Positions 1 to 64,000 of a stretch of 64,000 nt of DNA are shown here, in pieces. The notes beneath the pieces are model-generated. The model did not search any database. It was not told where the DNA came from and was given only the letters and a program-made list of their open reading frames with translations. Origin of the DNA: an uncultured Acidobacteriota bacterium (GTDB taxonomy: Bacteria; Acidobacteriota; Terriglobia; Acidiferrales; UBA7541); NCBI GenBank assembly GCA_963703705.1, contig CAVPFK010000024.1, forward strand, positions 144,338-208,337. The letters are read 5' to 3'. The position numbers were made by a program, and so were the translations under genes. Position 1 is the stretch's first letter; every line of letters begins with the position of its first letter.

Positions 1-473
1 CGACGCGGGCGCTGGCGGATTATTTTGAGGCGGCTGTGCGCGCAGGAGCGCCGGCCAAATCCGCGGCCAATTGGATTTCGACCGAGCTATTGCGGCGGCT
101 AAATGAAGGCGGAAAGAACATCGAGGATTGTCCCGTGACGCCATCCGCGCTGGCGGAATTGTTGGCAAAGATTGAAGGCGGTGCGATCACCGCGGCGACC
201 GGGAAGAAAGTATTTACAACGATGTTTGATACAGGCAAGAGCGCGGCCGATATTATTTCAGCCGAAGGAATGGCACAGATTACCGATTTGGGCGCCATTG
301 AAAAGATTGCGCGGGAAGTGGTGGTCAAGAATGCGGAGAACGCGGCAAAATATCGCGCGGGAAATGAAGGCGTGTTCAAGTTTTTCGTCGGGCAAGTGAT
401 GAAGGAAACACAGGGGCAGGCTAATCCGCAAGTGGTGAACGACGTTTTGAAGCGCGTACTAGCGGAATCTTAG
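1..473 (+). CDS. gatB: Asp-tRNA(Asn)/Glu-tRNA(Gln) amidotransferase subunit B, C-terminal part (5' end outside window)
   Basis: The frame is open from the window edge to TAG at 471-473. The tail (NWISTELLRRLNE...GKKVFTTMFDTGKSAADIISAEGMAQITD...FFVGQVMKETQGQANPQVVNDVLKRVL) looks like the GatB/YqeY C-terminal domain. Confidence 0.85.
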   Translation, partial: TRALADYFEAAVRAGAPAKSAANWISTELLRRLNEGGKNIEDCPVTPSALAELLAKIEGGAITAATGKKVFTTMFDTGKSAADIISAEGMAQITDLGAIEKIAREVVVKNAENAAKYRAGNEGVFKFFVGQVMKETQGQANPQVVNDVLKRVLAES

Positions 474-501
474 CCTTAAGCGGACAGGGGAAGCATACGT
501 C

Positions 502-963
502 ATGTTGAAGGAAGGCGATAAGGCTCCGAGTTTTCGAGTGACGGCTGACGACGGCAAGCCCGTGGGGCTGTCGGATTTTCGCGGGCGCAATCTGGTCCTG
601 TATTTCTATCCCAAAGCCAACACGCCCGGTTGAATCAACGAAGCGTCCGAGTTTCGTGACGCCATCAAGACGTTCGAAAAACTGGACACCGCCATCGTGG
701 GATGCAGCGCAGACGACGTGGAAGCTCAGACCAAATTCAAGATCAAGCATAAACTGAATTTCCCGTTGCTAGCGGACACGGAATTCGAAGTGATTGAACC
801 CTTCGGAGCTCGGCGGATGAAGAGTTTTCTGGGAAAGTCATTTTTAGGCATCGTGCGCATGACATTCTGGATCGGACCGGACGGAAAGATTCGAAAAATT
901 TGGGATAAGGTTACGCCGAAAGGACATGCCGCCGAGGTGATTGCCGCGATTGAGGCTGGATAA
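502..963 (+). CDS. bcp: Bcp/PrxQ-type peroxiredoxin with in-frame TGA (631-633) at the peroxidatic Cys position; probable selenocysteine
   Basis: ATG at 502 reads MLKEGDKAPSFRVTADDGKPVGLSDFRGRNLVLYFYPKANTPG-TGA-INEASEFRD... and continues in the same frame into the listed ORF 697..963. It matches the Bcp motif YFYPKxxTPGCTxEA, with TGA replacing the Cys codon. Confidence 0.75.
643..662 (+). promoter_or_regulatory. Candidate bacterial SECIS hairpin downstream of the in-frame UGA
   Basis: GCGUC-CGA-GUU-UCG-U-GACGC. The lower stem is 5 bp (643-647 with 658-662) and the upper stem is 3 bp (648-650 with 654-656). U657 is bulged and the apical loop contains GU. The hairpin starts 9 nt after UGA 631-633. 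Folded by eye only. Confidence 0.45.
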
Positions 964-969
964 ATCGTA

Positions 970-1842
970 CTAGACATTCACACGGAAGACGCCGTTTCCC
1001 TCTTCGATCTGCGCGTTATCAATCAGCCGCGTTTTACCTAATTTTGCTGCAAGCAATATAAGGCAACTTCCCCGGAGGCTTACCACCGGCTCAAGCGATT
1101 CCGCGTCCACAATTTCGGCGTAATCCAGGACCATGCCGGGCTCGGCTTCGATCACGTGATGTAATGTGGAGAGCAGGCGCGCGGCGCTACGTTCACCGGC
1201 TACGATTTCCTGGCGCGCGGACTCAAGCGAGCGATAGAGCGCGGTGGCGGCGCGGCGTTCGTCAGCGTTCAAATAAACATTTCGTGACGAATGCGCCAAG
1301 CCGTCGGGCTCGCGAAGAATCGGGCGAACGACAATTTGAGCGGGAAGATTGAGGTCCCGCGCCATTTGGCGGATGATTCGGGCTTGCTGCGCGTCCTTGC
1401 GTCCGAAATACGCACGATTTGGCTGAACAATTTCGAAGAGCTTAAGCACTACGGTGGTGACGCCCTGGAAATGGCCGGGACGCGAGCGGCCTTCGAGCTT
1501 GTCGCTAAGCCCTTGCACGGTGACGACGGTGCCAAAATCGGGCGGGTACATTTCCTCGGGTGTTGGCGCGAATAGATAATCCACGCCGAGATTTTCCAGC
1601 GCGGTGCGGTCCGCTTCGAAAGCACGCGGATATTTCTGAAAATCCTCAGAGGGACCGAACTGTTTCGGGTTGACGAAAAGCGAAACGACGACCGGAGAGC
1701 ATTCGGCTTTTGCCGCGCGTATCAACGAGAAGTGGCCTTCGTGCAGGGCGCCCATGGTTGGAACGAGGCCGATGATGCGTTCCTGGGCGCGCGCTTCGCG
1801 GGCTACCTGGCTCATCCACGATATGGTGCGAATTATTTCCAT
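970..1842 (-). CDS. panC: Pantoate--beta-alanine ligase
   Basis: 290 aa. The motif GLVPTMGALHEGHFSLIRAA...VVSLFVNPKQFGPSEDFQKYPR is typical of PanC (HIGH-type nucleotidyltransferase). Confidence 0.9.
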   Translation of the reverse strand: MEIIRTISWMSQVAREARAQERIIGLVPTMGALHEGHFSLIRAAKAECSPVVVSLFVNPKQFGPSEDFQKYPRAFEADRTALENLGVDYLFAPTPEEMYPPDFGTVVTVQGLSDKLEGRSRPGHFQGVTTVVLKLFEIVQPNRAYFGRKDAQQARIIRQMARDLNLPAQIVVRPILREPDGLAHSSRNVYLNADERRAATALYRSLESARQEIVAGERSAARLLSTLHHVIEAEPGMVLDYAEIVDAESLEPVVSLRGSCLILLAAKLGKTRLIDNAQIEEGNGVFRVNV

Positions 1843-1907
1843 GGCGTCGGTGCAGGAGATGTCTCAGGGGGCTGCTTTGATCGAGATCTGTCGACGGTCT
1901 GGTGGCC

Positions 1908-2417
1908 TCATGCCTTAGTCTGTGCAGCGCGCTCGCGATAGAAAATGATGAGGTCGGTACCGATGGGCTTGGCATCCAGCTGACGGAGCAGGCTTGCGAC
2001 TTGTCCACGATGATAGGTGCCGTGATTTACCAGATGTTGCAGCATTTGCCAAAGCGGGGCGGCTTGCGGCACGCCGGCAGTTGTCTTGTGTTCGATCACG
2101 CGATCCAAATCCTCGGGCTTCATCGAAGCGACATAGTCGAGGAGATTGCTTTCGACTTCAGCCCAGCGACGGCGTACCGCTTCCTGCGTGGGAAAATCGC
2201 TTGCGGGCGGAAAGTGATCCGGGGAACGGCCCAACCAGCGTTCGCGCCACAACCATTCGACCAGTAAGATATGGACGAGCGTATCGCGCACGGAGCGGAA
2301 GCTCGATCGCAGGTCGCGCGTGAATTGCTCGTCGTTGAGCGGCGTGCATGATTCGAGAGTGCGGCGATTGGCCCAGGAGTTGTAATCATACAGGCGGCGG
2401 AAATCGTCGAGGTTCAT
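1908..2417 (-). CDS. DinB-family (DinB/YfiT-like four-helix bundle) protein
   Basis: 169 aa. The N-terminus reads YDYNSWANRRTLESC and the C-terminal His motif reads HLVNHGTYHRGQVASLLRQL. It sits between panB and panC on the same strand. Confidence 0.75.
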   Translation of the reverse strand: MNLDDFRRLYDYNSWANRRTLESCTPLNDEQFTRDLRSSFRSVRDTLVHILLVEWLWRERWLGRSPDHFPPASDFPTQEAVRRRWAEVESNLLDYVASMKPEDLDRVIEHKTTAGVPQAAPLWQMLQHLVNHGTYHRGQVASLLRQLDAKPIGTDLIIFYRERAAQTKA

Positions 2418-2469
2418 GCGAGTTGTCTCCTTCAGGATACGGAGCGCGCATTAAACTGCGACAGGATCA

Positions 2470-3357
2470 TCAGACGCGCTGCCGCGCAAGCAAGTGCTCG
2501 CGCAATTCGGCCGGCGAATGGAAAGACTCCGCATCGGATGGAAAACACCCGGCGCCGACATCATGGCAGAATGCCTCCGCGGCGCGGGAAATTTCGCCGG
2601 CGAGATTCACATATTGGCGCGCGAACTTCGGCGTGTGGCCGACGGTGAGGCCCACCAGATCGTGGAAGACGAGAACCTGTCCATCGCAATCGGGGCCTGC
2701 GCCTATGCCGATGGTTGGAATGCGGAGCTTCTCAGTGATGCGAGCGGCAAGGTCGCGCGGAACGGATTCCAGCACGACCGAAAACGCGCCGGCGGCTTCG
2801 ACCGCTTGCGCATCGCGCTCGAGCTGGCGCGCCGCGTCGACCGTTTTGCCCTGCACGTGGAATCCGCCCAGCGCATTCACCGATTGCGGGGTGAGACCGA
2901 CGTGGCCCATTACAGGTATTTCGGCTTCCACTAAACGCGTGATCAATTCCAGCCGGCGTTCGCCACCTTCAATCTTGACGGCTTCCGCTCCGCCCTCTTT
3001 TACCAGGCGCATCGCGTTACGGATCGATTCGTCGAGGGAAACGTGAAAGCTTCCGTACGGCATATCCGCAACCAATAACGCCCGCTTGGTGCCGCGGCGG
3101 ACAGCGCGGACGTGGTGCAGCATTTCATCGAGCGTGACGGGCAGGGTGCTGTCGTAGCCAAGTACCACCATGCCGAGCGAGTCACCGACCAACAATATGT
3201 CCACGCCTGCATCGTCAAGCAGACGAGCGGTGGGATAGTCGTAGGCCGTCAAACAAGTGATTTTCTTTTTTGTTTCAGGGGAACTGGAACTGAATTTGCG
3301 GGATTGAATGTCAGGCACGGTAATTTTACCGTTACCTGCGCGAGGTGCAACGCTCAT
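2470..3357 (-). CDS. panB: 3-methyl-2-oxobutanoate hydroxymethyltransferase
   Basis: KKITCLTAYDYPTARLLDDAGVDILLVGDSLGMVVLGYDSTLPVTLDEMLHH is a PanB signature. I chose the start at ATG 3357 (MSVAPRAG) because GGAGG lies 4 nt upstream. The ORF track gives a longer version starting at 3411. Confidence 0.88.
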   Translation of the reverse strand: MSVAPRAGNGKITVPDIQSRKFSSSSPETKKKITCLTAYDYPTARLLDDAGVDILLVGDSLGMVVLGYDSTLPVTLDEMLHHVRAVRRGTKRALLVADMPYGSFHVSLDESIRNAMRLVKEGGAEAVKIEGGERRLELITRLVEAEIPVMGHVGLTPQSVNALGGFHVQGKTVDAARQLERDAQAVEAAGAFSVVLESVPRDLAARITEKLRIPTIGIGAGPDCDGQVLVFHDLVGLTVGHTPKFARQYVNLAGEISRAAEAFCHDVGAGCFPSDAESFHSPAELREHLLARQRV

Positions 3358-3491
3358 AGTGCCTCCGGTGCCGCTCCCAGGTTCGGGATGCAGCCCATAC
3401 AACAATCTCATTGTAGCAAATGGCGACCGGTTGCACTAAAAATTACTTGGCCGGCGGCGACGGCGACGACAACCATCCACTCGCCTGCCGT

Positions 3492-4313
3492 TTATTGAGC
3501 GTCAGTAACCTTACCGTTTACGAAGGTGACTTTGAGATCTTTGTAAACATAGATCTGCTTGGTTCCCAGGTTGATGATCTTTTCGGGCTGTCCAAGTATC
3601 CCGAGGACTTGATCGGGAGTTTGGCCCTTCTCTATTGTCGCTGGTGGGGCGGGCGGAGCTGCTTCAGCTGCAGGAGCCGCTTCCGCCGCGGGAGCCGCGT
3701 CTGCTGCCGGCGCCTGGCCCGCTGCGGGCTGTTGGTTTCCCTTGTCGTCCGACTTCGCGGAATCGTCTTGTTGAACTTTGAAGACTTCCGCGACGGTCTT
3801 CAACACTTCATCATTGGATGGCGTGGAGCCTTTGGAGTAAAGAAATTTGAGTGTGCATTGGTAACGCACGTCGCTATAGGGATCGCTGAACAAGGTGAAA
3901 ACAACGCCATCTGATTGCACAGCAATGCCGGTCACCCAGAACTTTTCGCCGGTAACGAAGTGCCGCGATTGCGTCTGCGCCTGGGATGGGGGCGGGTGGC
4001 CGATAAAGCTGCCAAATTTCTGCACGTTATCATGCACACCGAAGGCACCCTCAGAGAGCCTTCCGGCTTTATAGGTATTCTGGGGCAGAACCTGGTTAGA
4101 AATGGCGTACATTATTATTTTGTCTTTTTGGAGAATCAAAACGGACCCGGCGGTGACGATGTCGCTCTTATCGTCGGTGGGCTTGGTGATGGTGTATGTT
4201 GATTCCAATTGCTGTTGAAGTCCCTGGGCGGCGCTGCGAGGGCTGATCCCGAGCGATGCAAACACCAACGCCGCGATAACCCCTAATTTAATAAATGCTG
4301 GGCGCGAAAACAT
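3492..4313 (-). CDS. Secreted hypothetical protein with Ala/Pro-rich linker
   Basis: 273 aa. It has an N-terminal signal-like segment (FIKLGVIAALVFASLGISPRSAAQ), an (AAPAAE)n linker, and a small C-terminal domain ending KVTFVNGKVTD. I recognise no family. Confidence 0.6.
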   Translation of the reverse strand: MFSRPAFIKLGVIAALVFASLGISPRSAAQGLQQQLESTYTITKPTDDKSDIVTAGSVLILQKDKIIMYAISNQVLPQNTYKAGRLSEGAFGVHDNVQKFGSFIGHPPPSQAQTQSRHFVTGEKFWVTGIAVQSDGVVFTLFSDPYSDVRYQCTLKFLYSKGSTPSNDEVLKTVAEVFKVQQDDSAKSDDKGNQQPAAGQAPAADAAPAAEAAPAAEAAPPAPPATIEKGQTPDQVLGILGQPEKIINLGTKQIYVYKDLKVTFVNGKVTDAQ

Positions 4314-4473
4314 AGGCTTCCCTCACTAAGAAGAATTTTTTTCCGGGGAGCGGGGGAGCATCCCTTTGGATGAAACGCCGTAACTATAGGTAAGCGGATT
4401 AACCATGTCAACCAATCCATTAACTAAGCGTGACTCAATGCGCATTAGTTCGATCTGCTGTCTCAATGCTAAA

Positions 4474-4507
4474 CCGGGAAAGCCAGCCTGTAAGCTGACT
4501 CTCCCGG
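4474..4507 (-). terminator. Possible intrinsic terminator after the repeat-protein gene
   Basis: On the minus strand: CCGGGAGAGUCAGCUUACAGGCUGGCUUUCCCGG, an imperfect hairpin followed by UUUAGCAUU. It lies about 40 nt downstream of the stop at 4548. Confidence 0.35.
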
Positions 4508-4547
4508 TTCGGTGATCCTTTGCACTCGTTAATGGGATTAGGCGCTG

Positions 4548-6458
4548 TTAATTGCTGATCCCATCGTTTTGGGCTACCTGGACTTCTTTCTCAGCCTCGT
4601 CCGCCTCTTGTTGCTGTTTCTGCAAATCAGCGGCTGCGTTAGGATCGGGCGTTGCCTGGCCTTCCGGATTGGGCTTCGATACAGCCGAGCCAGCCGGAGC
4701 GGCAGGCATACCATTCTTGCCCTGATTCTTTGCCAGCTGTTCGAGACCGTCATCGATCTGCTCCCGGAAATGATTGTGCATTTCCTGGAGATCGTTGACA
4801 GCAACGGCTACCTGAACCCCCGAACTGCAGTCGCCCTTCTGGCTGCCGCTAACGAGCACCTTAACGTTCTGGTTGGCATCAGGAGTATCGTCGATGCGGG
4901 TAAGAACATCGCCCTGAGTCAACGAACATTCTGTGCCATCGGGCAACTGGGGATTTATAGTGTCCGCTACGATGAAAGTACGATTGTTAGGATTCAAGGC
5001 GTCCGGAACCACTTCTGGCGGAGTAGCTGAGGCCGAGTCTGACGCCGCGGCTGCTGGCGCTGCCGCCGGAGCACTAGTCCCGGCCGACTGCGCGGCTGCC
5101 GCGTCCCTTTCGGCTGCGATCTGGGCTTTCACTTCATCAGCGATTGCCTGTTTTACTTCCGGAGTGAGAACGACTGCCTGCTGACCGCCACCTCCGCCGT
5201 CCGCGGGAGCAGCAGCAACAGCGCCTCCTCCGTCACCACCTGCGTTTGCGCTCGCAACAGCAGCGGCGTTAGCTGAAGCCTGGGCTGCGTAGGCGGCTTG
5301 CAGATTGGCTGCAATCAGATAGTCCGTGATCCAGAATGCTGGGGCTGCATAAACCGGGTAAGGATTGAAATAGTATCCGTAGTAACCATACCAGGGAGCT
5401 CCACCCCATCCCCAGCCCCAACCAATTCCCGGACCCCATCCGCCGTAGGCCCAACCATAGTAACCACCGCCCCAGTAGTGTCCGGGGTAGTAGTGGTTGT
5501 AGTAGCCACCGTGGTAGTAGCCACGGCCATAAACATGCGCATAAGCATGGCCACCTCGGTAGTAGGTGCGGCTGTTGTAGCTGCGGCCACCGCGCGAGAA
5601 GCTATGTTCTGTGTAACCGGCACCATGTCCAGTGCTAACCACTCTAGTGCCATTGGCTTTCGTGGACGTTACGGTACGGCTTCCATTAGCGCCGTGGTTG
5701 ATAGTCGTGCCGCTTTTGGTATGAATCGAGCTGACTTTGCCACTGGAACTGTAAGTCGCTTTTGTTCCGCTCTTGGTCGTGACGCTCGTGGTCTTGCCCG
5801 AGCCGTTGATTGTCTTTGTGTTTCCGTGAGCAGTGGTGACGGTCTTGCTGGCTGCTGCGTTCTTGCCACCCGACGTATTGGACTTCGCGCCACCGGCCGT
5901 GGTTGTCTTGGCCCCACCTGCTGTGGTTGTCTTCGCCCCACCTGCCGTGGTCGTCTTCGCGCCGCCTGCCGTGGTCGTCTTCGCGCCGCCTGCCGTGGTC
6001 GTCTTCGCGCCGCCTGCCGTGGTCGTCTTCACGCCGCCTGCTGTGGTCGTCTTCGCCCCACCTGCCGTGGTTGTCTTCGCCCCACCTGCTGTGGTCGTCT
6101 TCGCCCCACCTGCTGTGGTCGTCTTCGCCCCACCTGCTGTGGTTGTATGCGAGCCGCCGGCTGTGGTTGTCTTGGCACCGCCGGCCGTAGTCGTGTGACC
6201 GGCGTTGGCGGTAGTTGTATGCGAACCGCCTGCCGTGGTTGTATGCGAGCCGCCTGCCGTGGTTGTATGCGAGCCGCCGCTCGAAGTCGAGTGTGACGGA
6301 GCGCTCGTATGAGCCGGCGCTGACGGATGCGACCCACCACCTGAAGAACCGCCACCGCCTTTATTCTTTTGGCCCCAAGCTAGACTTGGGAGCATGAGTA
6401 AAACGAGAAATACTGTCCACTTTGCTGCGAGATTGCGACCTGGCTGGCCGGATTTCAT
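4548..6458 (-). CDS. Secreted low-complexity repeat protein (TTTAGG[AK/SH] octapeptide array, Gly/Tyr/Trp-rich block, Ala-rich linker, C-terminal globular domain)
   Basis: 636 aa with a signal peptide (WTVFLVLLMLPSLAWGQ). It contains 16 tandem octapeptides, then YYRGGHAYAHVYGRGYYHGGYYNHYYPGHYWGGGYYGWAYGGWGPGIGWGWGWGG. The ORF is uninterrupted despite the repeats. Confidence 0.7.
   Translation of the reverse strand: MKSGQPGRNLAAKWTVFLVLLMLPSLAWGQKNKGGGGSSGGGSHPSAPAHTSAPSHSTSSGGSHTTTAGGSHTTTAGGSHTTTANAGHTTTAGGAKTTTAGGSHTTTAGGAKTTTAGGAKTTTAGGAKTTTAGGAKTTTAGGVKTTTAGGAKTTTAGGAKTTTAGGAKTTTAGGAKTTTAGGAKTTTAGGAKSNTSGGKNAAASKTVTTAHGNTKTINGSGKTTSVTTKSGTKATYSSSGKVSSIHTKSGTTINHGANGSRTVTSTKANGTRVVSTGHGAGYTEHSFSRGGRSYNSRTYYRGGHAYAHVYGRGYYHGGYYNHYYPGHYWGGGYYGWAYGGWGPGIGWGWGWGGAPWYGYYGYYFNPYPVYAAPAFWITDYLIAANLQAAYAAQASANAAAVASANAGGDGGGAVAAAPADGGGGGQQAVVLTPEVKQAIADEVKAQIAAERDAAAAQSAGTSAPAAAPAAAASDSASATPPEVVPDALNPNNRTFIVADTINPQLPDGTECSLTQGDVLTRIDDTPDANQNVKVLVSGSQKGDCSSGVQVAVAVNDLQEMHNHFREQIDDGLEQLAKNQGKNGMPAAPAGSAVSKPNPEGQATPDPNAAADLQKQQQEADEAEKEVQVAQNDGISN
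5883..6266. repeat. Tandem 24-bp repeat, 16 contiguous units (384 bp), inside CDS 4548..6458
   Basis: Plus-strand units read cttcgcSccRcctgcYgtggtYgt. Three consecutive units (cttcgcgccgcctgccgtggtcgt) are identical. Units toward 6266 diverge (atgcgagccgcc...). Confidence 0.9.
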
Positions 6459-6918
6459 ATTTATCTCCTCTTCATTCGGAACTTATTTTAATTTTCACGT
6501 TCAAGGCCGTTTGAAACTCGAAATCTTCCTACTATTGCCGCGCATACTTTCCCAGAGCGTCGAGCGCGCCCTAAGTTTGAGATCGCGTGCAACTGGATGA
6601 GCAGCGAATCAGCAGAAGCGTGCGTGTCATCCAGCTTGCTGAATATGAACGAATAAAACCAGTCAAGCCCCAAGACTGGTCTCACTACAGGCCTCTGCAA
6701 GAGCCAGGTTACAAGGGCAGTAATAAGTAGGGAAACTATAGTCCGAGGTTCGCCGGAGTGTCAATTCCAAATGAAAACCCCTATTCCTCTTTGCCATACG
6801 GCTCACTTGGATTTTCTCCATATTCGCCTGATCTAACCCAGCCGGCAAGCAAAAGTTGCAGGGTTCAGATTATTAGCGCACCGCTTGAAACGCGGGGCTG
6901 CAAGGGGGGCCACTAACT

Positions 6919-9900
6919 TCAGGATTGAACGACGGGGGCCGGCATTTGGGGTTCGACGCCACGCCATCCGACCGGGCGTCCCTGGACCGCTTCTTTCAAC
7001 GCGCGGAATAGAACGACGTACATCATCTGACGGTAGTAAAAACGCTGAAGGATCAGGGGCGCCAAGAGAGTCCAGTCTTCATTCCTTTCCAGCGCGAATG
7101 CGACGACGCAGGTTAACAAGTCGATGACCATGAAGATGGCGAAGAAGATCAGCGAACGCTCGACGTCCTGAAGAGTCCAGAGCTGGGGCAAGTGCGCGAT
7201 TCGAAGCTGCGCGAGCCCCCAGAGCGCGATGGAAAGCAAGAACAGGAGATCAATTACCGGTGAAACGAGCGGAAGAATAATCTGAAATAGAAATATGTTC
7301 GGAATTGCGATCCAGCCGAGTGTTCCATAGCGTGGCTTGCCCACTGCGTCGCGATGCTTCCATACCGCTTGCAGCGTCCCGAAAGTCCAGCGAAATCGCT
7401 GGCGAATCAGAGCTTCGACGGTATCGGGAACCTCGGTGCGTCCGATGGCGTCTTCGTCATATAGAATTTTCCATCCATTGCGACGGATGGTAAGAGTGAG
7501 GTCGGTATCTTCCGCCACGGTGTCACCCGAAAAGCCGCCATTGGCGCGCAACAAATCCGTGCGCCACGCTCCTGCCGCGCCGGGCACGACCGGAATGCAA
7601 TTCAACAAATCGAACGCGCGCTTTTCCAAGTTCTGACTGGTGATGTATTCGAGAGCCTGCCAGCGTGTGAGCCACTTATTGCGGTTCATCACTTTCACGT
7701 TTCCCGCCACTGCGCCTACTTTGGGATCCGCGAAATGCCGGACCAGGCGCGAGATGGCCTCGGGGTCCACGATTGTGTCCGCGTCAATAGAAACGACAAT
7801 TTCACCGACGGCTTCCGAGAGGGCATGGTTCAGCGCGGCCGGTTTGCCGCGGTTCGGCTGCAACAACAACCGCACGCGCGGGTCGCGTCCAAAATTTTCG
7901 CGCACGAGTTCGGCGGTGCGATCGGTGGAACCGTCGTCCACCGCCAGGATCTCGAGATGGGGATACGTGGAAGCGAGCGCCGAGCGCAGGGTATCGACGA
8001 TGACGGACTCCTCGTTGTACGCCGGAATCATAACCGTGACTTCCGGTTTGTACTCGGGATGATCCACCGGGTTGGGCCTGAGTTTCTCCGCAAGAGCAAG
8101 CAAGCCCACGACCAGCGCGCGGCCACTGACGAGCAAAATTCCGGTCATAAAAATGAAGCCGATGCCGAAGCGAAACCAGCGGAAGGCCTCAAAGGCGAAC
8201 GCGTCCGCGCGCGCGAGCAACCATTCTTGATGGCTGAGCGGCGGCATCACTTGCGCGCGGGTTTGGCCCAACAGACTGCCCACCGAGACAAATTCATAGC
8301 CCTTCGCGCGAAGGGCATCAATGATTTGCGGTAGCGCTGCAAGTGTGTGGCTGCGGTCTCCGCCGCCGTCGTGCATCAGGATGATGTTTCCCTTGCCGGT
8401 CTGCGTATCCGTCAGCACGCGCTGGACGATCGTATCCACTGGGGGAGGTGAGCCGCCGTCTGGCTCGCCCCAATCATGCGGGTCGATCTGAGCACCCACG
8501 ATGATGTATCCCATCGATTGCGGAACAGGAAGCATCGCAATTTCGCTGGCCGTTTCGGGCTGGTGATCGATACCGTAAGGTGGCCGAAAAAGGAGAGTCT
8601 TCACACCCAGGTTGCTTTCCAAAAGCAGTTCGGTGAGATTCAGCTCAAACTGGAGCTGAGATTTCGAAATGGTCTCAAAATCGGGATGCGTGAAGGTGTG
8701 ATTGCCTACTTCATTTCCGAGATCGAACTCACGCTTCACGATTCCGGGATACTGATTTGCGGACTCGCCGATTACAAAGAAGGCCGCGGGGACTTGTTTC
8801 TGATGCAAAACGTCAATGATTCTCGAAGTCCAGTTGGGATCGGGACCATCGTCGAATGTAAGAGCTACTTTGTGCGGAGCGTATCCCATCTGATCGATGC
8901 GCCAGGAAAGCGGATAGGTCTTGAACGTCTCGTCGGTGAAAAGATCGGTGTCGGAATCGTATTCGAACTCACGACGGCCGCTCTGCGGAGTGGCGGTAAT
9001 GCGCCATATATCGCCCTGGCCTTCCAGAATTAAGTCGTAGCCGGGTGGAACGTCGTGCACTTTGTTGCGAATCGTATCGTCGGGATGGGTGGCGTCCCAT
9101 ATGGACCATATCGACGGGTCTTCCATACCCAGGCGCCACAGCGCTGTGCCGCGGACGCCGGCACGTTCGGCCGCGCGCAATTCGTTGTAAGCCGTAAGAG
9201 CATCCAGCATCCAAACCTGGTGCACGTTATTTTTTTCATCTTCGTAGGAGTAGTGCGGATTCAGAGAATCGGAATCGAACTCGACATCGGTCTCCGACTC
9301 CACGGCGGTAACAATGCCTTGTTGAAACGTGACGGGCTGGGCGATGGGGTGCGGAGCTGCTTTCGATTTTGGCTGCCAGTCGTAACCATAATTCGCGATG
9401 CCCATCACGATTTTCTCGGGCGCCACCAGCTTGGTTATGTTTTGAATGTTGGTGACGAACCAATCCTGAGACGCGATGGGGCCGGGATCGGACGTGGGGT
9501 AGTGCAAGTCGTAATTCATCAGGATCATGGCATCGGCTTGCGCTGCCAAATACTTGTAGTCGTAGCTCCAGTCCGCGGCCGGCAGCGCGACCATCAATTT
9601 CAGGTTGGCGGAGCGCAACGAGGCGCCTAAATCGTGAATGAAACGGTTAAAGTCCGCCATACTGGATTGCGGGACTTGCTCGAAATCGACGACGATACCG
9701 GGCTGGTGCTGCTGGGAAACAAAATCAGAGAGCTCCCTTAGCAGACGGTCGCGCGCTGCCGGATGCCCGAGCATGTCCGCCATATCTTTTATGGCCCAGT
9801 CTTTTCCATTGTAGTTATTGACCATGGACATCACCGGAAGCTCGAGGCCGGTGGGCTGCATGGATTTCATCCAGGCGTCGAGTTTCGTATTGCGGTCAAT

Positions 9901-10305
9901 CTCCAAATGGCCGTCCGGCCAAGCGGCGTGCAGCGCGTCCGGAATGAGCAAGTCGATGTCGTGGTAGTGCACCTGCAGCGCAGCGAGACTCGATGCGTCA
10001 TCTTCTTCGTAAAAGGCCGCGCGCAGGGGATCGTAGTTCTGCGGAATTTTTCCCAGGGCGGCGATCTTGCGCTTGCGGCCCCGAGTGGTTTTTGTCTTCA
10101 CGACCGCAAGATGCGTGCGGATGGCGTGGAGTCCGCCGTGAGTATCCGCCTGCAAAATTTCAGGGAGCGCGGGATTGCGGCCGACGTTGACCAGGAAAAT
10201 GACAAGCACGATGGTAAAGAAACTGCCGGCAATTTCCAGCACGCGGCGAGTGCGCCGCCAGCGGCGCCGCTCTTGATCATAGAAAATGGGCTTGCGTTCA
10301 GGCAT
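6919..10305 (-). CDS. Fused membrane polysaccharide synthase: GH18-like domain + CE4 (NodB) polysaccharide deacetylase + processive family-2 glycosyltransferase
   Basis: 1128 aa. The N-terminus is basic (RRRWRRTRR) and is followed by a TM helix. The GH18-like region carries GIVVDFEQV at about aa 90-400. NodB motifs (LTFDDGPD, HTFTHPDF, LFRPPYG, ILMHDGGGD) lie at about aa 478-680, followed by TM helices. GT2 motifs (IPAYNEE, DDGSTD, DADT, AEDTD, QRFRW) lie at about aa 755-985. The C-terminus has further TM helices. Confidence 0.85.
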   Translation of the reverse strand: MPERKPIFYDQERRRWRRTRRVLEIAGSFFTIVLVIFLVNVGRNPALPEILQADTHGGLHAIRTHLAVVKTKTTRGRKRKIAALGKIPQNYDPLRAAFYEEDDASSLAALQVHYHDIDLLIPDALHAAWPDGHLEIDRNTKLDAWMKSMQPTGLELPVMSMVNNYNGKDWAIKDMADMLGHPAARDRLLRELSDFVSQQHQPGIVVDFEQVPQSSMADFNRFIHDLGASLRSANLKLMVALPAADWSYDYKYLAAQADAMILMNYDLHYPTSDPGPIASQDWFVTNIQNITKLVAPEKIVMGIANYGYDWQPKSKAAPHPIAQPVTFQQGIVTAVESETDVEFDSDSLNPHYSYEDEKNNVHQVWMLDALTAYNELRAAERAGVRGTALWRLGMEDPSIWSIWDATHPDDTIRNKVHDVPPGYDLILEGQGDIWRITATPQSGRREFEYDSDTDLFTDETFKTYPLSWRIDQMGYAPHKVALTFDDGPDPNWTSRIIDVLHQKQVPAAFFVIGESANQYPGIVKREFDLGNEVGNHTFTHPDFETISKSQLQFELNLTELLLESNLGVKTLLFRPPYGIDHQPETASEIAMLPVPQSMGYIIVGAQIDPHDWGEPDGGSPPPVDTIVQRVLTDTQTGKGNIILMHDGGGDRSHTLAALPQIIDALRAKGYEFVSVGSLLGQTRAQVMPPLSHQEWLLARADAFAFEAFRWFRFGIGFIFMTGILLVSGRALVVGLLALAEKLRPNPVDHPEYKPEVTVMIPAYNEESVIVDTLRSALASTYPHLEILAVDDGSTDRTAELVRENFGRDPRVRLLLQPNRGKPAALNHALSEAVGEIVVSIDADTIVDPEAISRLVRHFADPKVGAVAGNVKVMNRNKWLTRWQALEYITSQNLEKRAFDLLNCIPVVPGAAGAWRTDLLRANGGFSGDTVAEDTDLTLTIRRNGWKILYDEDAIGRTEVPDTVEALIRQRFRWTFGTLQAVWKHRDAVGKPRYGTLGWIAIPNIFLFQIILPLVSPVIDLLFLLSIALWGLAQLRIAHLPQLWTLQDVERSLIFFAIFMVIDLLTCVVAFALERNEDWTLLAPLILQRFYYRQMMYVVLFRALKEAVQGRPVGWRGVEPQMPAPVVQS

Positions 10306-10335
10306 CGGGACAATCCAAGCTAGCCGTCCATCAAG

Positions 10336-11754
10336 ATGGTGTCAATTACCCAACACACTAAGATGCTCGTAAATGCTGGCCTCGCTGTGTCAGCTGGGTT
10401 GGCCCTGAGAGTGTTCTTCGTACTGAAGTTCCCCGTCACGGATTCGGGCGATGCTCCATTCTACATGGAGTTGGCTTGGAATTGGCTGAAGAACGGAGTA
10501 TACGGATTTCCGGTCAATGGGCACCTGACCCCGGTAGACATGCGCGTTCCGGGCTATCCGGCATTCCTTGCCGCGGTTTTCGCCTTCGCAGGAAATTCCC
10601 CGCGCGCCGTCATGCTTGCGCAAGTCGTACTCGACCTGGCCACTTGTTTCCTGATCGCGCTAATCGCCGGGCGGCTGGCACCGGAAATATCCCGCAGGCG
10701 TGTGATGCTGGCGGGGCTGTGGCTTGCGGCGCTTTGTCCCTTTACGGCCAACTACACGGCGGTGGTGCTCACCGAGACTTTGACGATATTTCTGACCGCG
10801 CTCGCGCTTTTGATTTTGCTCGAGACGGACTTCGGCAAAAAGATCGATCTGTCGCGCAGAGTGAATTTTGGCAAAGGACTGTTGAATCCATGGTTGCTGG
10901 CGGGAATCGTGGTCGGGTTCGGGACACTCGTGCGCCCGGAAACGCCATTGGTCCTTTTTGCCGCTGGCTTGGTGCTGGCCACAGAGTGGTGGCGGCCAGT
11001 GAATTGGGCGAAACTTTTTCGTACCGGATTGCTGCTGGCCGCCGGGACGATATTGCCGCTGATACCCTGGGCGGCGCGCAATTGGAACACGCTGCACGAC
11101 GTTCAATTTTTGGCGCCGCGATACAGCGAACTTCCCGGTGAATACACGCCGCTCGGATTCAACGACTGGACAAATACCTGGCTTTGGCATTTTCGCGACG
11201 TATATCTGACGCAGTGGAAGCTCAATGAGGAAGAGATTTCGCTCGATGATCTTCCTGCTTCGGCGTTCGATTCGGCCGAAGAACGCGCGCGCGTTTCGGA
11301 TTTGTTGGACCAATACAACGAAGAGCTGACGGTGGGACCGGCGCTTGATCAGCAATTTCGCGAGCTCGCGCGCGAACGCACCCAGCGGCACCCATTGCGC
11401 ACTCATCTCCTCGTGCCATTTTTGCGGTCGCTCACTTTGTGGTTTACGCCTCGGATTGAGCTGCTGCCATATTCAGGGCATTTGTGGCCCGTAGGCGTGG
11501 AATGGGAAGACGATCGTCCGGATTTTCTTTTGACGCTTAGTCTGATTTTCGCGAATGTTGGCTACCTCGGGCTTGCGCTGGCGGGGGCTTGGATGGCGCG
11601 GCGGCAGCCGGGGGCGGCGCTCTTGATTGCGTTCATTATCGTCCGCACGGCGTTCTTTACGACTTTCGTCGAGACGCCGGAGCCTCGCTATGTGCTGGAA
11701 TGTTTTCCCGCGGTGATCGCGCTGGCCGCGCGGGTGTTTTCCGGTCGCAACTAG
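10336..11754 (+). CDS. ArnT/PMT-like (GT-C fold, family 39-like) integral membrane glycosyltransferase
   Basis: 472 aa and polytopic. The N-terminal loop DSGDAPFYMELAWNWLKNGVYGF and the multi-TM pattern resemble PMT_2/ArnT-type enzymes. It is divergent from the synthase gene, with a 30-bp gap. Confidence 0.6.
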   Translation: MVSITQHTKMLVNAGLAVSAGLALRVFFVLKFPVTDSGDAPFYMELAWNWLKNGVYGFPVNGHLTPVDMRVPGYPAFLAAVFAFAGNSPRAVMLAQVVLDLATCFLIALIAGRLAPEISRRRVMLAGLWLAALCPFTANYTAVVLTETLTIFLTALALLILLETDFGKKIDLSRRVNFGKGLLNPWLLAGIVVGFGTLVRPETPLVLFAAGLVLATEWWRPVNWAKLFRTGLLLAAGTILPLIPWAARNWNTLHDVQFLAPRYSELPGEYTPLGFNDWTNTWLWHFRDVYLTQWKLNEEEISLDDLPASAFDSAEERARVSDLLDQYNEELTVGPALDQQFRELARERTQRHPLRTHLLVPFLRSLTLWFTPRIELLPYSGHLWPVGVEWEDDRPDFLLTLSLIFANVGYLGLALAGAWMARRQPGAALLIAFIIVRTAFFTTFVETPEPRYVLECFPAVIALAARVFSGRN

Positions 11755-36271: not shown

Positions 36272-37315
36272 CTATTGGACTTGTTTTAAAACGTAGGAGC
36301 GGTAGAGCGTGTCGCGCTGGGCGGGGAGGTAGCCCGCGTCGGAGATGATGCGGCGAAGCTCGGCCTCATTCGTGCGGGTACGCACGCCTGCTGCATACAC
36401 TACATTTTCTTCGATCAGGATGCTGCCCACATCATCGGCGCCAAACTGCAAACCTACCTGGCAAATTTTAATCCCTGGCGTGAGCCAGCTGGACTGTATG
36501 TGGTCGATATTGTCGAGGTACAGCCTGCTGATGGCGAGCGTCTTCAGATAATCGAAAGCCGTCGCTTCCGGAATTTTCTTTCCCAGCGGAGTATTTTCAG
36601 GCGCAAAAATCCAGGGAATGAAAGCGGTGAACCCGCCGGTGTCTTCCTGAATGCGGCGCAGCAGTTCCAGATGGTTCACCCGGTGGCGCGCTTCTTCTCC
36701 GCAGCCGAACATCATGGTCGCCGTCGTGCGCATGCCCAGTGAATGAGCCGCACGATGCACCTCTACCCATTCTTCGGAGCGGCACTTCAATCGCGAGATG
36801 CGCGCGCGTATTTCGTCATCCAGAATTTCGGCGCCGCCTCCGGGAATTGAATCGAGTCCGGCATCGCGTAGCCGGGCGATGGTATCTCGCAGCGAAAGTC
36901 CCGAAACTTCGGCGATACAGGTGATCTCCGGAGCCGAAAAACAGTGCAGGTGAACTTGCGGAAAGCGCTCCTTGATCGAGCGCAGCATGTTTTCGTAGAA
37001 CTCGATGCGCAAATCCGGATGCAGGCCGCCCTGCATCAGCACGCCAGTGCCGCCTAGCTCCAGCATCTCCTGGATTTTTTCGTAAATTGTCTCCAGTGGC
37101 AGGATGTAACCGTCTTTGGCTCCCAACGGGCGGTAAAACGCGCAAAACGAGCAGTACTCGGTGCAGAAATTCGTATAGTTGATGTTGCGGTCGATCTGAT
37201 AGGTAGCCACGCGCGCATCGGTTTTCTTCCGACGCACCTCGTTGGCGGCCATGCCGATCCCGATCAAATCATCGGAGTTGAAAAGATCCAGCGCTTCTTG
37301 TTGAGAAATACTCAT
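36272..37315 (-). CDS. mqnC: Radical SAM futalosine-pathway enzyme, tentatively cyclic dehypoxanthinyl futalosine synthase
   Basis: The SAM cluster motif is NYTNFCTEYCSFCAF, followed by GGTGVLMQGGLHPDL...GLDSIPGGGAEIL. The choice of MqnC over MqnE rests only on synteny with mqnA. Confidence 0.65.
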   Translation of the reverse strand: MSISQQEALDLFNSDDLIGIGMAANEVRRKKTDARVATYQIDRNINYTNFCTEYCSFCAFYRPLGAKDGYILPLETIYEKIQEMLELGGTGVLMQGGLHPDLRIEFYENMLRSIKERFPQVHLHCFSAPEITCIAEVSGLSLRDTIARLRDAGLDSIPGGGAEILDDEIRARISRLKCRSEEWVEVHRAAHSLGMRTTATMMFGCGEEARHRVNHLELLRRIQEDTGGFTAFIPWIFAPENTPLGKKIPEATAFDYLKTLAISRLYLDNIDHIQSSWLTPGIKICQVGLQFGADDVGSILIEENVVYAAGVRTRTNEAELRRIISDAGYLPAQRDTLYRSYVLKQVQ

Positions 37316-46731: not shown

Positions 46732-47964
46732 CTAGATATTCAGGGTGAGAGAAGTTTCGGGGATGAACCCGTCGATGCGGTTGGATGAACCGCGGACCGG
46801 CGGAGACGGCATTTTTGTACGGTCGAGCGGATTGTAGAGCGTGTCGCGCTCGACCGGGACTCGGCCCGCGGCGCGGATCAAGCGCTCAAGTTCGGCGCGA
46901 CTCATGTGCTCGGGAGTGGTGGCGCCGGCATCGTGATAGATCTTCTCTTCGACTACGGTTCCGTCCAGATCATTTGCGCCGAAACGCAGTGCGACTTGCG
47001 CGATGCGCGGCGTGAGCATGATCCAGTAGGCTTTGATGTGGTCGAAATTATCGAGCAGCAGGCGCGAGCAGGCGATGGCTTTTAAGTCGTCGAACCCGGT
47101 AGGATTCGGGATGTGCGAAAGGCCTGTATTTGCCGGGTGAAACGCCAGCGGGATGAAGGCGACGAATCCGTGAGTTTTGTCCTGCGTATCGCGCAGCTGG
47201 ATCAAGTGGTCCACGCGCTCTTCGTTCGTTTCAATGTGTCCGTAAAGCATGGTGGCATTCGAGCGCAGGCCAATTTCGTGGGCGGTGCGCGCGATTTGCA
47301 GCCACATTTGCCCGCTGACTTTGTGGTCGCAGATCATTTTTCGCACGCGCGGATGGAAAATTTCAGCGCCGCCGCCGGGCAGCGAGTCGACGCCCGCTTC
47401 TTTCATAGCCAGCAATGTGTCGCGGATGGATTTCTTCGAGATGCGCGCGTAGTAGCCCACCTCGACCATGGTGAACGCCTTCAGGTGGACTTGCGGGAAG
47501 CGCTGTTTCAAGCCGCGAATTAACTCCAGATAATACTCGAAGGGCAAATCCGGATGCAGGCCGCCGACGATGTGAAATTCCGTGGCGCCTTCGGCTACAC
47601 CTTGTGCGGCGCGCTGCCAGATTTCGTCAAGGGCGAAGGTGTAAGAGCCGGGGGCGTCGAGCGAGCGTCCAAAAGCGCACAACTTGCAATGCGCCACGCA
47701 AACGTTGGTGGGATTGATGTGCCGATTGACGTTGAAGTAGGTCACGTTGCCGTGGCGTTTTTCGCGGACGTAATTCGCAAGCCAGCCCACTCCGAGCAAA
47801 TCGTGCGATTGGTACAGCACTAGGCCCTCGTCGGCGGAGAGACGCTCGCCGACAAGGACTTTTTTCGAGATCGGCTCGAGGCGCGCGTCCTGGAATGCGG
47901 GCACTGTTTGTGCGCCAAGTTGTAGTCCTGTCGCCATTTGATTTCCGGTCGAAGAGCCGTTCAT
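46732..47964 (-). CDS. mqnE: Radical SAM futalosine-pathway enzyme, tentatively aminofutalosine synthase
   Basis: The SAM cluster motif is NPTNVCVAHCKLCAF, followed by HIVGGLHPDL...GVDSLPGGGAEIF. ATG at 47964 overlaps the upstream UbiA-family stop (ATGA). Adjacency to the prenyltransferase supports MqnE over MqnC, tentatively. Confidence 0.65.
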   Translation of the reverse strand: MNGSSTGNQMATGLQLGAQTVPAFQDARLEPISKKVLVGERLSADEGLVLYQSHDLLGVGWLANYVREKRHGNVTYFNVNRHINPTNVCVAHCKLCAFGRSLDAPGSYTFALDEIWQRAAQGVAEGATEFHIVGGLHPDLPFEYYLELIRGLKQRFPQVHLKAFTMVEVGYYARISKKSIRDTLLAMKEAGVDSLPGGGAEIFHPRVRKMICDHKVSGQMWLQIARTAHEIGLRSNATMLYGHIETNEERVDHLIQLRDTQDKTHGFVAFIPLAFHPANTGLSHIPNPTGFDDLKAIACSRLLLDNFDHIKAYWIMLTPRIAQVALRFGANDLDGTVVEEKIYHDAGATTPEHMSRAELERLIRAAGRVPVERDTLYNPLDRTKMPSPPVRGSSNRIDGFIPETSLTLNI

Positions 47965-48842
47965 GGGCGTACGACCGCTGCGCCCCAAAAGACCAGGAAC
48001 AACAGACTAATATAGCCATTCACGGTGAAAAAGGCAGCATTCATTTTGCTCAAGTCATTGGGCTTCACCAGGGAATGCTCGTAGGCCAGCAGGGTTGCCA
48101 CTACTGCTATTCCGACCCATGCGGGCCAGCTGAGTTGAAAGCTAAAGGCGAGCCAGGCGAGCAATCCGACCATTACCATGTGCATGGCGCGCGCAATGAC
48201 GAGCGCACGTGCGATGCCGAATTTTTGGGGAATGGAGTGGAGGCCGGCGGTCTTGTCGAATTCCACGTCCTGGCAAGCATAAAGAACGTCGAAGCCGCCG
48301 ACCCAGAGCGAGACAGCGGCGCAGAGTATCAGCATGCGCCAGTCGAGCGAGCCGCGAATTGCAATCCACGCAGCCGCGGGCGAAATACCGAGGCAGAAGC
48401 CGAGAACGAAATGCGACCAGGAGGTAAACCGCTTGGTGTACGAATAGAAAAACAAAATTGCCAGCGCGGCGGGAGAAAGTTTCAGCGCGAGCGGATTGAG
48501 TTGCCAGGCGGCGAGCACCAGGAGCGCAGACGCAATCAAAGTAAACATCCAAGCAAAGCCGACGGTGAGTTCGCCTGTGGGTAGAGCGCGATTGGCAGTG
48601 CGGGGATTGCGCGCGTCGTATTTCAAGTCGGCGATGCGGTTCATGGTCATGGCGGCGGAACGCGCGCCCACCATGGCGACGACAATCCAGAGAATTTGCC
48701 GCCAGGTTGGGAGTGCGCCTGCGGCCCGCGCAGCGAGCAATGCTCCCACCAGCGCGAAGGGCAGGGCGAAGACAGAGTGCTCGAATTTGATCATCTCCAG
48801 GACGGTGCGGACGCGGCTTTTTGTCATGACAAGTTCCGCCAA
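47961..48842 (-). CDS. UbiA-family aromatic prenyltransferase (candidate 1,4-dihydroxy-6-naphthoate prenyltransferase)
   Basis: 293 aa and polytopic. Asp-rich motifs sit in NRIADLKYDARNPRT and YACQDVEFD. It is coupled to the mqnE-like gene. Confidence 0.75.
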   Translation of the reverse strand: MAELVMTKSRVRTVLEMIKFEHSVFALPFALVGALLAARAAGALPTWRQILWIVVAMVGARSAAMTMNRIADLKYDARNPRTANRALPTGELTVGFAWMFTLIASALLVLAAWQLNPLALKLSPAALAILFFYSYTKRFTSWSHFVLGFCLGISPAAAWIAIRGSLDWRMLILCAAVSLWVGGFDVLYACQDVEFDKTAGLHSIPQKFGIARALVIARAMHMVMVGLLAWLAFSFQLSWPAWVGIAVVATLLAYEHSLVKPNDLSKMNAAFFTVNGYISLLFLVFWGAAVVRP

Positions 48843-59947: not shown

Positions 59948-59997
59948 GCAGAGCTACGGTTTCGATCACAAGCGGGATGAACAGGGGAGAAGGCTCG

Positions 59998-62845: not shown

Positions 62846-64000
62846 TTAGCAGAGCGCGGAAGCCAGCGCTCTCGTGAGTTCCGACTCTTGGGCGGGCATT
62901 ACCGTGCGGAGATCCAGAATCAGGCGATGGTCTTCGATGCGTGCGATTACCGGCGTGGCATTGCCCGGCCTGCGCAATCGCGCTTCGAGCTGCCCGGCCG
63001 AATGGCGCGTGCTAGCGATTGTGATTAGGTTGGTCGGAATCTGCTGGTCCGGCGTGGAACCGCCGCCGATCACGGAAAATCCTGCGATGATCCGGAGCGT
63101 CACCTCATTTGCTATCAAGGGCTGCAATTGCGCGACGAATTTTCGCGCGCGCTCAGCGATTGCGCCAGCCTCGAGCCGAATCATTCGAAGCGCGGGAATC
63201 TCGTCGACCGCACCGCGCAGGTAGGTTCGCAGAGTGATTTCGAGCGCGGCGATTGTGAGTTTGTCCACGCGAAGCGCACGAAAAAGCGGATTGCGCCGGA
63301 TGCGTTCGATGATTTCTTTTTTGCCGGCGATGATTCCGGCTTGCGGGCCTCCCAGCAATTTATCTCCACTGAATGAAACGGCCGAGGGGCCGGCGGCACA
63401 ACTGGTCGCCGTGACGGGTTCGCAAACTCCGTTCGCCGAAAGATCGGCGAGGCAGCCCGAGCCCAGGTCTTCGAACACCGGAATCTGCGAGCGGTTCCCG
63501 AGCGCGATCAATTCTTCCAGCGAAGGACGCTCGGTGAATCCGGTCATGCTGAAATTCGACGGATGGACGCGAAGGAGCAGGCGAGTGCGGTCGGTGATAG
63601 CGCGCTCGTAATCGCCGATGCCGGTGCGATTCGTGGTTCCCACTTCGCGCACGATTGCGCCGCTTTCGGCCATGATGTCCGGAATGCGGAAGCCGTCGCC
63701 GATTTCGATCAACTCGCCGCGCGAGACGATTGTTTCGGCGCCTTTGGAAAGAGTGTTCAGCGCCAGGAATACCGCCGCGGCATTGTTGTTAACGATGATG
63801 GCCGCTTCGGCACTTACCAAATGAGCGAGCATTCGTGAGGTATGAACGTCTCGCCGGCCGCGCTCGCCGGTTTCGAGGTCATATTCGAGGTTGGAGTAAC
63901 TGACGGCGACTTGCGCTATGCGTGCAGCTGCTTCGGTCGAAAGCGGTGCGCGACCCAGGTTTGTGTGCAGGATCACGCCGGTAGCGTTAATTACCTGGCG
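62846..64000 (-). CDS. selA: L-seryl-tRNA(Sec) selenium transferase, C-terminal ~385 aa (5' end outside window)
   Basis: The frame is open to the window edge. It reads VINATGVILHTNLGRAPL...NNNAAAVFLALN...VSRGELIEIGDGFRIPDIM...VGTTNRT...HPSNF...SFSGDKLLGGPQAGII, with the PLP-Lys in the SGDKLLGGPQ context. Confidence 0.85.
   Translation of the reverse strand, partial: RQVINATGVILHTNLGRAPLSTEAAARIAQVAVSYSNLEYDLETGERGRRDVHTSRMLAHLVSAEAAIIVNNNAAAVFLALNTLSKGAETIVSRGELIEIGDGFRIPDIMAESGAIVREVGTTNRTGIGDYERAITDRTRLLLRVHPSNFSMTGFTERPSLEELIALGNRSQIPVFEDLGSGCLADLSANGVCEPVTATSCAAGPSAVSFSGDKLLGGPQAGIIAGKKEIIERIRRNPLFRALRVDKLTIAALEITLRTYLRGAVDEIPALRMIRLEAGAIAERARKFVAQLQPLIANEVTLRIIAGFSVIGGGSTPDQQIPTNLITIASTRHSAGQLEARLRRPGNATPVIARIEDHRLILDLRTVMPAQESELTRALASALC

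Follow-up and report, generated by a model that had tools for sequence, protein, structure and literature searches.

How should a UGA codon be read when it stands exactly where a peroxidase is expected to carry its catalytic cysteine? The question is raised by a gene for a peroxiredoxin (Prx) of the Bcp/PrxQ type in a 64,000-nucleotide stretch of contig CAVPFK010000024.1 from an uncultured soil Acidobacteriota bacterium, the whole of which is called the window below. Our answer is that positions 502-963 very probably encode a single 153-residue Bcp/PrxQ peroxiredoxin with selenocysteine (Sec) as its predicted peroxidatic residue. The initial annotation of the window had likewise called the gene a probable selenoprotein and not a pseudogene, and this was supported by every check that was run.

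One reading frame on both sides of a UGA

The frame opened by ATG 502 reads MLKEGDKAPSFRVTADDGKPVGLSDFRGRNLVLYFYPKANTPG up to the TGA at 631-633, continues in the same frame (INEASEFRD...IVGCSADD...) and closes with the TAA at 961-963, and translation confirms these limits as they had first been drawn. Forty-three sense codons precede the TGA, the last of them reading ...YFYPKANTPG, and behind it the frame resumes with INEASEFRDAIKTFEKLDTAIVGCSADD...; a mechanical list of open reading frames (ORFs) holds for this gene only 502-633 (43 aa) and 697-963 (88 aa, GTG start). The 153-aa product, read with Cys at residue 44, is assigned to Pfam AhpC-TSA (PF00578) at an E value of 2.4e-33 and scores 141.1 bits against the NCBIfam equivalog PRK09437, "thioredoxin-dependent thiol peroxidase," for which the cut-off is 140. 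The best match among solved structures is 5enu_A (E 4.3e-32), followed by several entries named "bacterioferritin comigratory protein," and the Bcp structure matches in the PDB span E 4e-32 to 1e-16.

Relatives of the gene were drawn from a scan of one genome per GTDB species, which returned 79 loci, nearly all of them in metagenome-assembled genomes (MAGs) of Acidobacteriota and many carrying the name Candidatus Acidiferrales. The gene sets were fixed by anchoring on the active-site motif, giving 45 TGA genes, the window gene included, and 41 Cys-form homologues. Each of the 45 is exactly 153 gapless codons long with TGA at codon 44; the 44 that join the window gene come from 40 species-level genomes and 4 JGI metagenome contigs, and the TGA-bearing proteins are 56-97% identical to one another in amino acid sequence. 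An alignment of codon 44 across orthologues had been proposed from the outset, and it finds TGA in these 45 genes and TGC or TGT in 41 of the 41 Cys forms. The TGA also aligns with the Cys of TPGC in the Bcp structures, which together with the Cys homologues supports the claim that it falls exactly on the peroxidatic Cys.

Selection was compared through pairwise Nei-Gojobori proportions of nonsynonymous and synonymous differences (pN and pS) among the TGA genes, with each side of the TGA treated separately. Codons 2-43 give a pS of 0.66, a pN of 0.18 and a pN/pS of 0.28 (0.277), and codons 45-153 give a pS of 0.61, a pN of 0.15 and a pN/pS of 0.25 (0.248), neither ratio exceeding those of the Cys homologues (0.32 and 0.40). 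Purifying selection is the same for the two halves, as the initial annotation had judged from their equal conservation, which argues that the whole frame is translated, since a product started at 697 would lack the active site and leave the 5′ part no reason for conservation. A pseudogene, whether decaying after a nonsense mutation at the catalytic Cys codon or reduced to the piece that begins with GTG 697, would suit the stop-to-stop ORF callers and public gene calls that give just the 43-aa and 88-aa fragments, but it is extremely unlikely: the downstream piece would be without the whole active site, pN/pS upstream of the TGA equals that downstream, all 86 genes of the two sets keep residues P37, T41 and R119, and the TGA persists in 45 orthologues whose synonymous sites are saturated with change (pS about 0.65) and whose frames are free of indels and additional stops.

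As had been expected of an annotation pipeline, the gene is found truncated in public gene calls, where its exact 43-aa and 88-aa pieces stand as separate "peroxiredoxin Q/BCP" fragments. These exact fragments were located on four ENA assemblies of the same species (L164-L167), all four of which have the TGA. One of them (L165; ENA ERZ25039506 contig_21267, 524 kb) matches the window at 99.9% identity along 10,964 nt (window 1-10963) and may be either the source contig of the window or a near-identical strain; the other three carry 10-12 substitutions each within the gene, and among the first ten listed for each of these three none lies inside 640-662. A sequencing or assembly error that put TGA in place of TGC or TGT might draw some support from a related long-read assembly (L072) that has indels around this region, but its probability is practically negligible: the TGA is identical in the four ENA assemblies, whose contig names (k141_* and contig_*) suggest different assemblers, and it recurs in 40 other species-level genomes and in the 4 JGI metagenome contigs. 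Because the codon is shared in this way by orthologues and assemblies, a recent nonsense mutation is excluded together with sequencing error.

The assembly L072 differs from L063 over positions 10040-10165 by two 1-nt indels, a nucleotide missing from a T/C run ahead of the TGA and one added past the hairpin described below; the TGA and hairpin themselves are intact, and a single +1-frame reading passes the active site (…FFPRPIHPVEPTKRPSFATPSKDF…). Rather than biology, the indels probably reflect an error in a homopolymer or a frameshift "correction" made to evade the stop. A TGA-bearing Bcp with the same invariant hairpin also occurs on DASPVZ010000025.1 (L037), labelled Candidatus Cybelea sp., a genus which we take to belong to Eremiobacterota and not to Acidobacteriota; the occurrence could reflect mis-binning or lateral transfer.

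The nearest four proteins in a collection of 5.8 billion proteins (P0001-P0004, from JGI metagenomes; 78-88% identity) are printed with W at residue 44, yet the DNA has an in-frame TGA in all four. On these short JGI/IMG contigs the TGA lies at L001:128-130, L002:494-496, L003:248-250 and L004:200-202. Evidently the genes were called with a translation table that reads UGA as Trp, so that the W is an artefact, and such calls disguise a selenoprotein as a catalytically dead "W" peroxiredoxin.

A hairpin behind the UGA

The hairpin at 643-662 begins 9 nt after the UGA and has the sequence GCGUCCGA/GUU/UCG-U-GACGC, the fold ((((((((...))).))))) and a free energy of -9.8 kcal/mol (z = -3.8 relative to shuffled versions of the 26-nt piece); folding thus confirms the place and the GU-containing loop reported for it at first. 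A small G-containing apical loop is a common feature of bacterial selenocysteine insertion sequence (SECIS) elements (PMC1088965), and the window hairpin has such a loop immediately downstream of the UGA.

The support for the hairpin is a freeze of synonymous sites that is specific to the TGA genes, the signature by which a bacterial SECIS would be predicted. Third-codon-position entropy across the 45 TGA genes has a gene mean of 1.18 bits and drops to only 0-0.15 bits at codons 47-51 and 53, where the 41 Cys homologues have 0.8-1.7 bits. Averaged over codons 47-53 the entropy is 0.22 bits in the TGA genes versus 1.11 bits in the Cys homologues; this is the lowest seven-codon window of the gene, and none of 200,000 random seven-codon draws was as low. 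The frozen codons read GAA GCG UCC GAG UUU CGN GAC. All 45 TGA genes have GAA at codon 47, against 26 GAA and 14 GAG in the Cys homologues; GCG at codon 48, against six different codons; TTT at codon 51, against 23 TTT and 18 TTC; and GAC at codon 53, against 17 GAC, 8 GAT and others.

As a 20-mer the hairpin sequence has just 4 variants in the 45 TGA genes. Those of 41 genes differ at the bulged base alone, three more (L065, L067 and L075) have A for U646 together with G at the bulge, and the last (L068, MAG REEB321) has an unrelated sequence at the site; the loop GUU is invariant in 44 of the 45, and 98.4% of alignment cells in the hairpin are paired. At L068:10130-10190 there is a perfect 8-bp hairpin, UUUCGCGA-CGUGC-UCGCGAAA, which starts 21 nt after the U of the UGA. 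The gene of L068 is placed among the Cys forms in a neighbour-joining (NJ) tree, and the case suggests either SECIS turnover or an independent switch from Cys to Sec.

The near-invariant 20-nt hairpin is a ready search pattern for the SECIS of this lineage, and a clean natural case of an RNA element freezing synonymous sites within a coding sequence. When the TGA plus the apical motif CGAGTTTCG was searched in all the DNA examined for other selenoprotein genes, only out-of-context matches were returned, and a scan of the window for other TGA-interrupted ORFs turned up nothing beyond pairs of adjacent genes in one frame and ORFs in a wrong frame.

Decoding UGA, and a possible exchange of Sec and Cys forms

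The window does contain selA, as had been claimed; the gene, for L-seryl-tRNA(Sec) selenium transferase, belongs to the Sec-synthesis machinery on which the recoding would depend, and it runs off the window end on the minus strand. It scores 509.8 bits against TIGR00474 (cut-off 267.9) over profile positions 74-454 of 455, and a metagenome scan for selA returned 80 loci at 67-81% identity. LarB, of nickel-pincer cofactor synthesis (NF033503, 286 bits), is convergent with selA, an arrangement also present in the relative L085, with selB not adjacent. In an Acidiferrales genome with the TGA form (L029), selB lies 9 kb downstream of the Sec-bcp gene, past pyrD, rlpA and pyrF; this partial selB scores 303.8 bits against TIGR00475, for which the cut-off is 242.25.

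Elsewhere in the organism UGA is an ordinary stop, because TGA is the commonest stop of the window, where it closes 15 of the 39 long ORFs, and the gene uses TGG for Trp at codons 123 and 134. This bears on a selenium-free alternative in which UGA-44 is read through by near-cognate insertion of Trp or Cys, perhaps aided by the hairpin, or in which UGA is a sense codon throughout. Hairpins after stop codons can promote read-through, and the four JGI proteins print W, but that W is an artefact over DNA that has TGA, and a Trp in the peroxidatic place would leave the enzyme without catalysis, which does not fit the strong purifying selection on the protein. For Cys, TGC or TGT would be simpler and is what 41 relatives use, and the selA in the window has no known role beyond making Sec-tRNA(Sec). 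Together with the use of TGA as a stop and of TGG for Trp, this makes read-through without selenium highly improbable.

If Sec is inserted, a ribosome arriving at UGA-44 would meet the hairpin acting as a bacterial SECIS, which would recruit SelB-GTP with Sec-tRNA(Sec), made by the SelA encoded at the opposite end of the window, and Sec would be incorporated instead of termination. The selenolate of U44, set in the motif P37-x3-T41-x2-U44 together with the conserved R119, would then attack the peroxide and become a selenenic acid. Because no resolving Cys is conserved, reduction of the oxidised Sec would most likely fall directly to an external thiol (thioredoxin or glutaredoxin, for example), in the manner of a 1-Cys Prx. 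Residue 49, five positions after the peroxidatic residue, is Ser in the window protein, as had been noticed, and across the Sec group it is S in 41, T in 3 and I in 1; even among the Cys forms only 7 of 41 have Cys there. The sole Cys of the window protein, C68, has Ala as its counterpart in 9 of 45 orthologues, and Cys is lacking altogether in 9 orthologues.

Several observations weigh against insertion of Sec through this hairpin. On the side of the machinery, tRNA-Sec, selB and selD were not found in the 64-kb window: ARAGORN gave no tRNA of any kind there, NCBIfam scans of 30 window ORFs gave neither selB nor selD, and tblastn with the SelB of Solibacter usitatus had no match in the window. 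ARAGORN likewise found no tRNA-Sec in 60 scanned selA loci or in the 167 loci examined, and L085, the closest selA relative with full flanks, has no ORF of selB size (about 630 aa) beside selA, a comparison made on ORF sizes only and not with family models. On the side of the hairpin, no pair changed on both sides; the element is simply invariant, so its structure is not proven by covariation. The proposed check of whether the hairpin varies freely came out in two parts, with synonymous sites frozen only in the TGA genes and covariation not found. The change of U646 to A in L065, L067 and L075 breaks one U-A pair and is uncompensated. No Rfam family matched, either at the gathering threshold over the whole window or at E <= 10 over 600-720, the only hit being a chance one to a miRNA. 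The bulged U first described is indeed an unpaired U at 657, but it lies on the 3′ arm and its base varies among relatives (U in 26 TGA genes, C in 16 and G in 3), while the codon that holds it is CGC in 32 of 41 Cys homologues; there may be a mild preference for U, without a requirement. The expectation of a typical bacterial SECIS stands for position and for the loop GUU, and its comparison with the "bulged U" of fdhF is weak.

The Sec and Cys forms are interleaved in the NJ tree, and the Sec genes are monophyletic in 0 of 100 NJ bootstraps, with or without residues 45-54; a tree of 152 residues is too weak to settle the direction of change between Sec and Cys. Lineages at 56% amino-acid identity have an identical 20-nt hairpin, and the Cys forms L049, L054, L058 and L062 hold a near-copy of its sequence that varies at synonymous sites. 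Because the hairpin is common to distant lineages and near-copies survive in some Cys forms, the more parsimonious account, when set against many independent gains, is tentatively either a Sec ancestor with repeated replacement by Cys or a Sec allele that spread laterally. That Sec was ancestral in the acidobacterial Bcp clade, with Cys replacing it several times later, is a possibility to which we would give a little short of an even chance. If true, it would reverse the direction reported in the 2006 survey, in which only Cys-to-Sec events were scored for Prx (PMC1794560), and Sec-Bcp would be an antioxidant enzyme widespread among the Acidobacteriota of soil and peat, one that appears split or mistranslated in public gene calls.

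In six MAGs (L019, L020, L021, L024, L027 and L028) the Sec gene is immediately preceded, in tandem, by a Bcp paralogue of the Cys form (GCIHEANGFRNMF), the peroxidatic codon lying at about 9551-9560 in the Cys form and at 10130 in the Sec form; the syntenic locus L061 has the Cys paralogue type only. The tandem Cys paralogue may be a selenium-independent backup for when selenium is scarce.

The neighbourhood of the window gene is one of housekeeping genes, with the end of gatB 28 nt upstream and panC, a DinB-family gene and panB convergent downstream. A search around the Bcp gene gave neither a sigma-70-like promoter nor an intrinsic terminator, and the gene may be co-transcribed with gatB. 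Farther along, the presence of MqnC and MqnE indicates that menaquinone is made by the futalosine pathway. The positions of these and the remaining features are collected in Table 1.

Table 1. Positions of the peroxiredoxin gene, its SECIS-like element and other features of the window
Feature	Position	Strand	Remarks
Bcp/PrxQ-type peroxiredoxin, complete coding sequence	502..963	+	153 codons + TAA; residue 44 = UGA; translation, family models, orthologues
UGA at the peroxidatic-Cys position (P37xxxT41xxU44 motif)	631..633	+	Predicted Sec codon
SECIS-like element (putative)	640..662	+	Invariant 640-642, then hairpin 643-662
Hairpin stem	643-650 with 654-656 and 658-662
Hairpin apical loop	651-653		GUU
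Hairpin bulge	657
ORF bearing the tandem repeat	4548-6458	-	636 aa, without NCBIfam match
24-nt tandem repeat	5883-6278		16.5 copies, 85% matches; 8-residue protein repeat approximately TTTAGGAK
1128-aa protein	6919-10305	-	GH18, polysaccharide deacetylase and glycosyltransferase-2 domains
MqnC	36272-37315	-	477 bits
MqnE	46732-47988	-	515 bits
M16-type peptidase-like ORF	59944-61488		514 aa
LarB	61961-62764	+	Convergent with selA
selA	62846..64000	-	TIGR00474; 5′ end beyond window

Relation to known selenoproteins

The gene is an additional member of an already known Sec-Bcp family, and its main value lies in the correction of annotation and in the spread of the family through soil Acidobacteriota. 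Its proper annotation is one intact 153-aa selenoprotein in place of the present two fragments (43 aa and 88 aa) or the Trp-containing protein of JGI, and at least 40 species-level Acidobacteriota genomes hold the same mis-called gene; selenoproteins of this kind are routinely broken up or wrongly translated by gene callers. Judged from their genes, soil and peat Acidobacteriota seem to rely on a selenium-dependent thiol peroxidase, which bears on the link between trace selenium and tolerance of oxidative stress in soils. Knowledge of Sec decoding and of peroxiredoxins in general is unchanged by the finding.

Among RNA elements the nearest comparison is the SECIS of fdhF. In both, a hairpin follows the UGA directly inside the coding sequence, its small apical loop opens with GU, and one base of the stem is left unpaired. 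The window hairpin differs in having no sequence similarity to that type and no Rfam match, and in a bulge that lies on the 3′ arm and is U, C or G, a feature from which the E. coli fdhF element presumably departs. The minimal fdhF element starts 11 nt after the UGA, and the window hairpin starts 9 nt after it.

Among proteins, the atypical 2-Cys Bcp/PrxQ of the E. coli type (CxxxxC) shares with the window protein the PRK09437 model and the catalytic P, T and R residues. It differs in that the window protein is predicted to have Sec for the peroxidatic Cys and has Ser at the resolving position (+5), and because of that Ser its intramolecular disulfide cycle cannot operate in the window protein. 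PrxU, the Sec-containing peroxiredoxin of Eubacterium acidaminophilum (Sohling et al. 2001, as cited in PMC13188914), is likewise a Sec-dependent peroxidase of the thioredoxin fold with Sec at the peroxidatic position, where the window protein has its putative Sec, but it belongs to another Prx subfamily. Against NF040737 the window protein reaches 34.4 bits, far under the cut-off of 270, and an identity with PrxU is ruled out.

The closest relation is with the Sec-containing Prx with the motif TxxU, COG1225 (Bcp), a catalogued family of prokaryotic selenoproteins (PMC1088965, PMC9312934, PMC13188914). The Sargasso Sea survey counted 43 members (PMC1088965), and the family is listed in reviews of 2022 (PMC9312934) and 2026 (PMC13188914). 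Sec proteins of Bcp type are shown for Anaeromyxobacter, Geobacter, Syntrophobacter and Syntrophus in the comparative study of 2006 (PMC1794560 supplementary file 4), the named examples being Prx_1 of Anaeromyxobacter dehalogenans and the Prx of Geobacter metallireducens, Syntrophobacter fumaroxidans and Syntrophus aciditrophicus (PMC1794560). Sec use in Acidobacteriota was itself already known (PMC1794560 Table 2; PMC12013277); an acidobacterial Prx is absent from the 2006 list (PMC1794560), and no paper describing this acidobacterial Sec-Bcp clade was found in the literature. The initial annotation was right that Sec-containing Prx are known from selenoproteome surveys, the family having been catalogued since 2005-2006, and its estimate of moderate novelty is if anything generous.

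The window clade differs from the catalogued family in its host, being of Acidobacteriota and mostly of "Candidatus Acidiferrales," and shares with it the Bcp fold, a length of about 150 aa, Sec (predicted for the window clade) in place of the peroxidatic Cys in FYPKxxTxGU, and many Cys-form homologues. With Anaeromyxobacter Prx_1 the window protein has 44% identity (E 6e-45), and the stretch FFYPKANTSGUTQEASDFRD, published for the Anaeromyxobacter Sec-Bcp in 2006 (PMC1794560 supplementary file 4), has G-U-x-x-E-A-S-x-F-R-D in common with it, TSGUTQEASDFRD there corresponding to the predicted TPGUINEASEFRD of the window.

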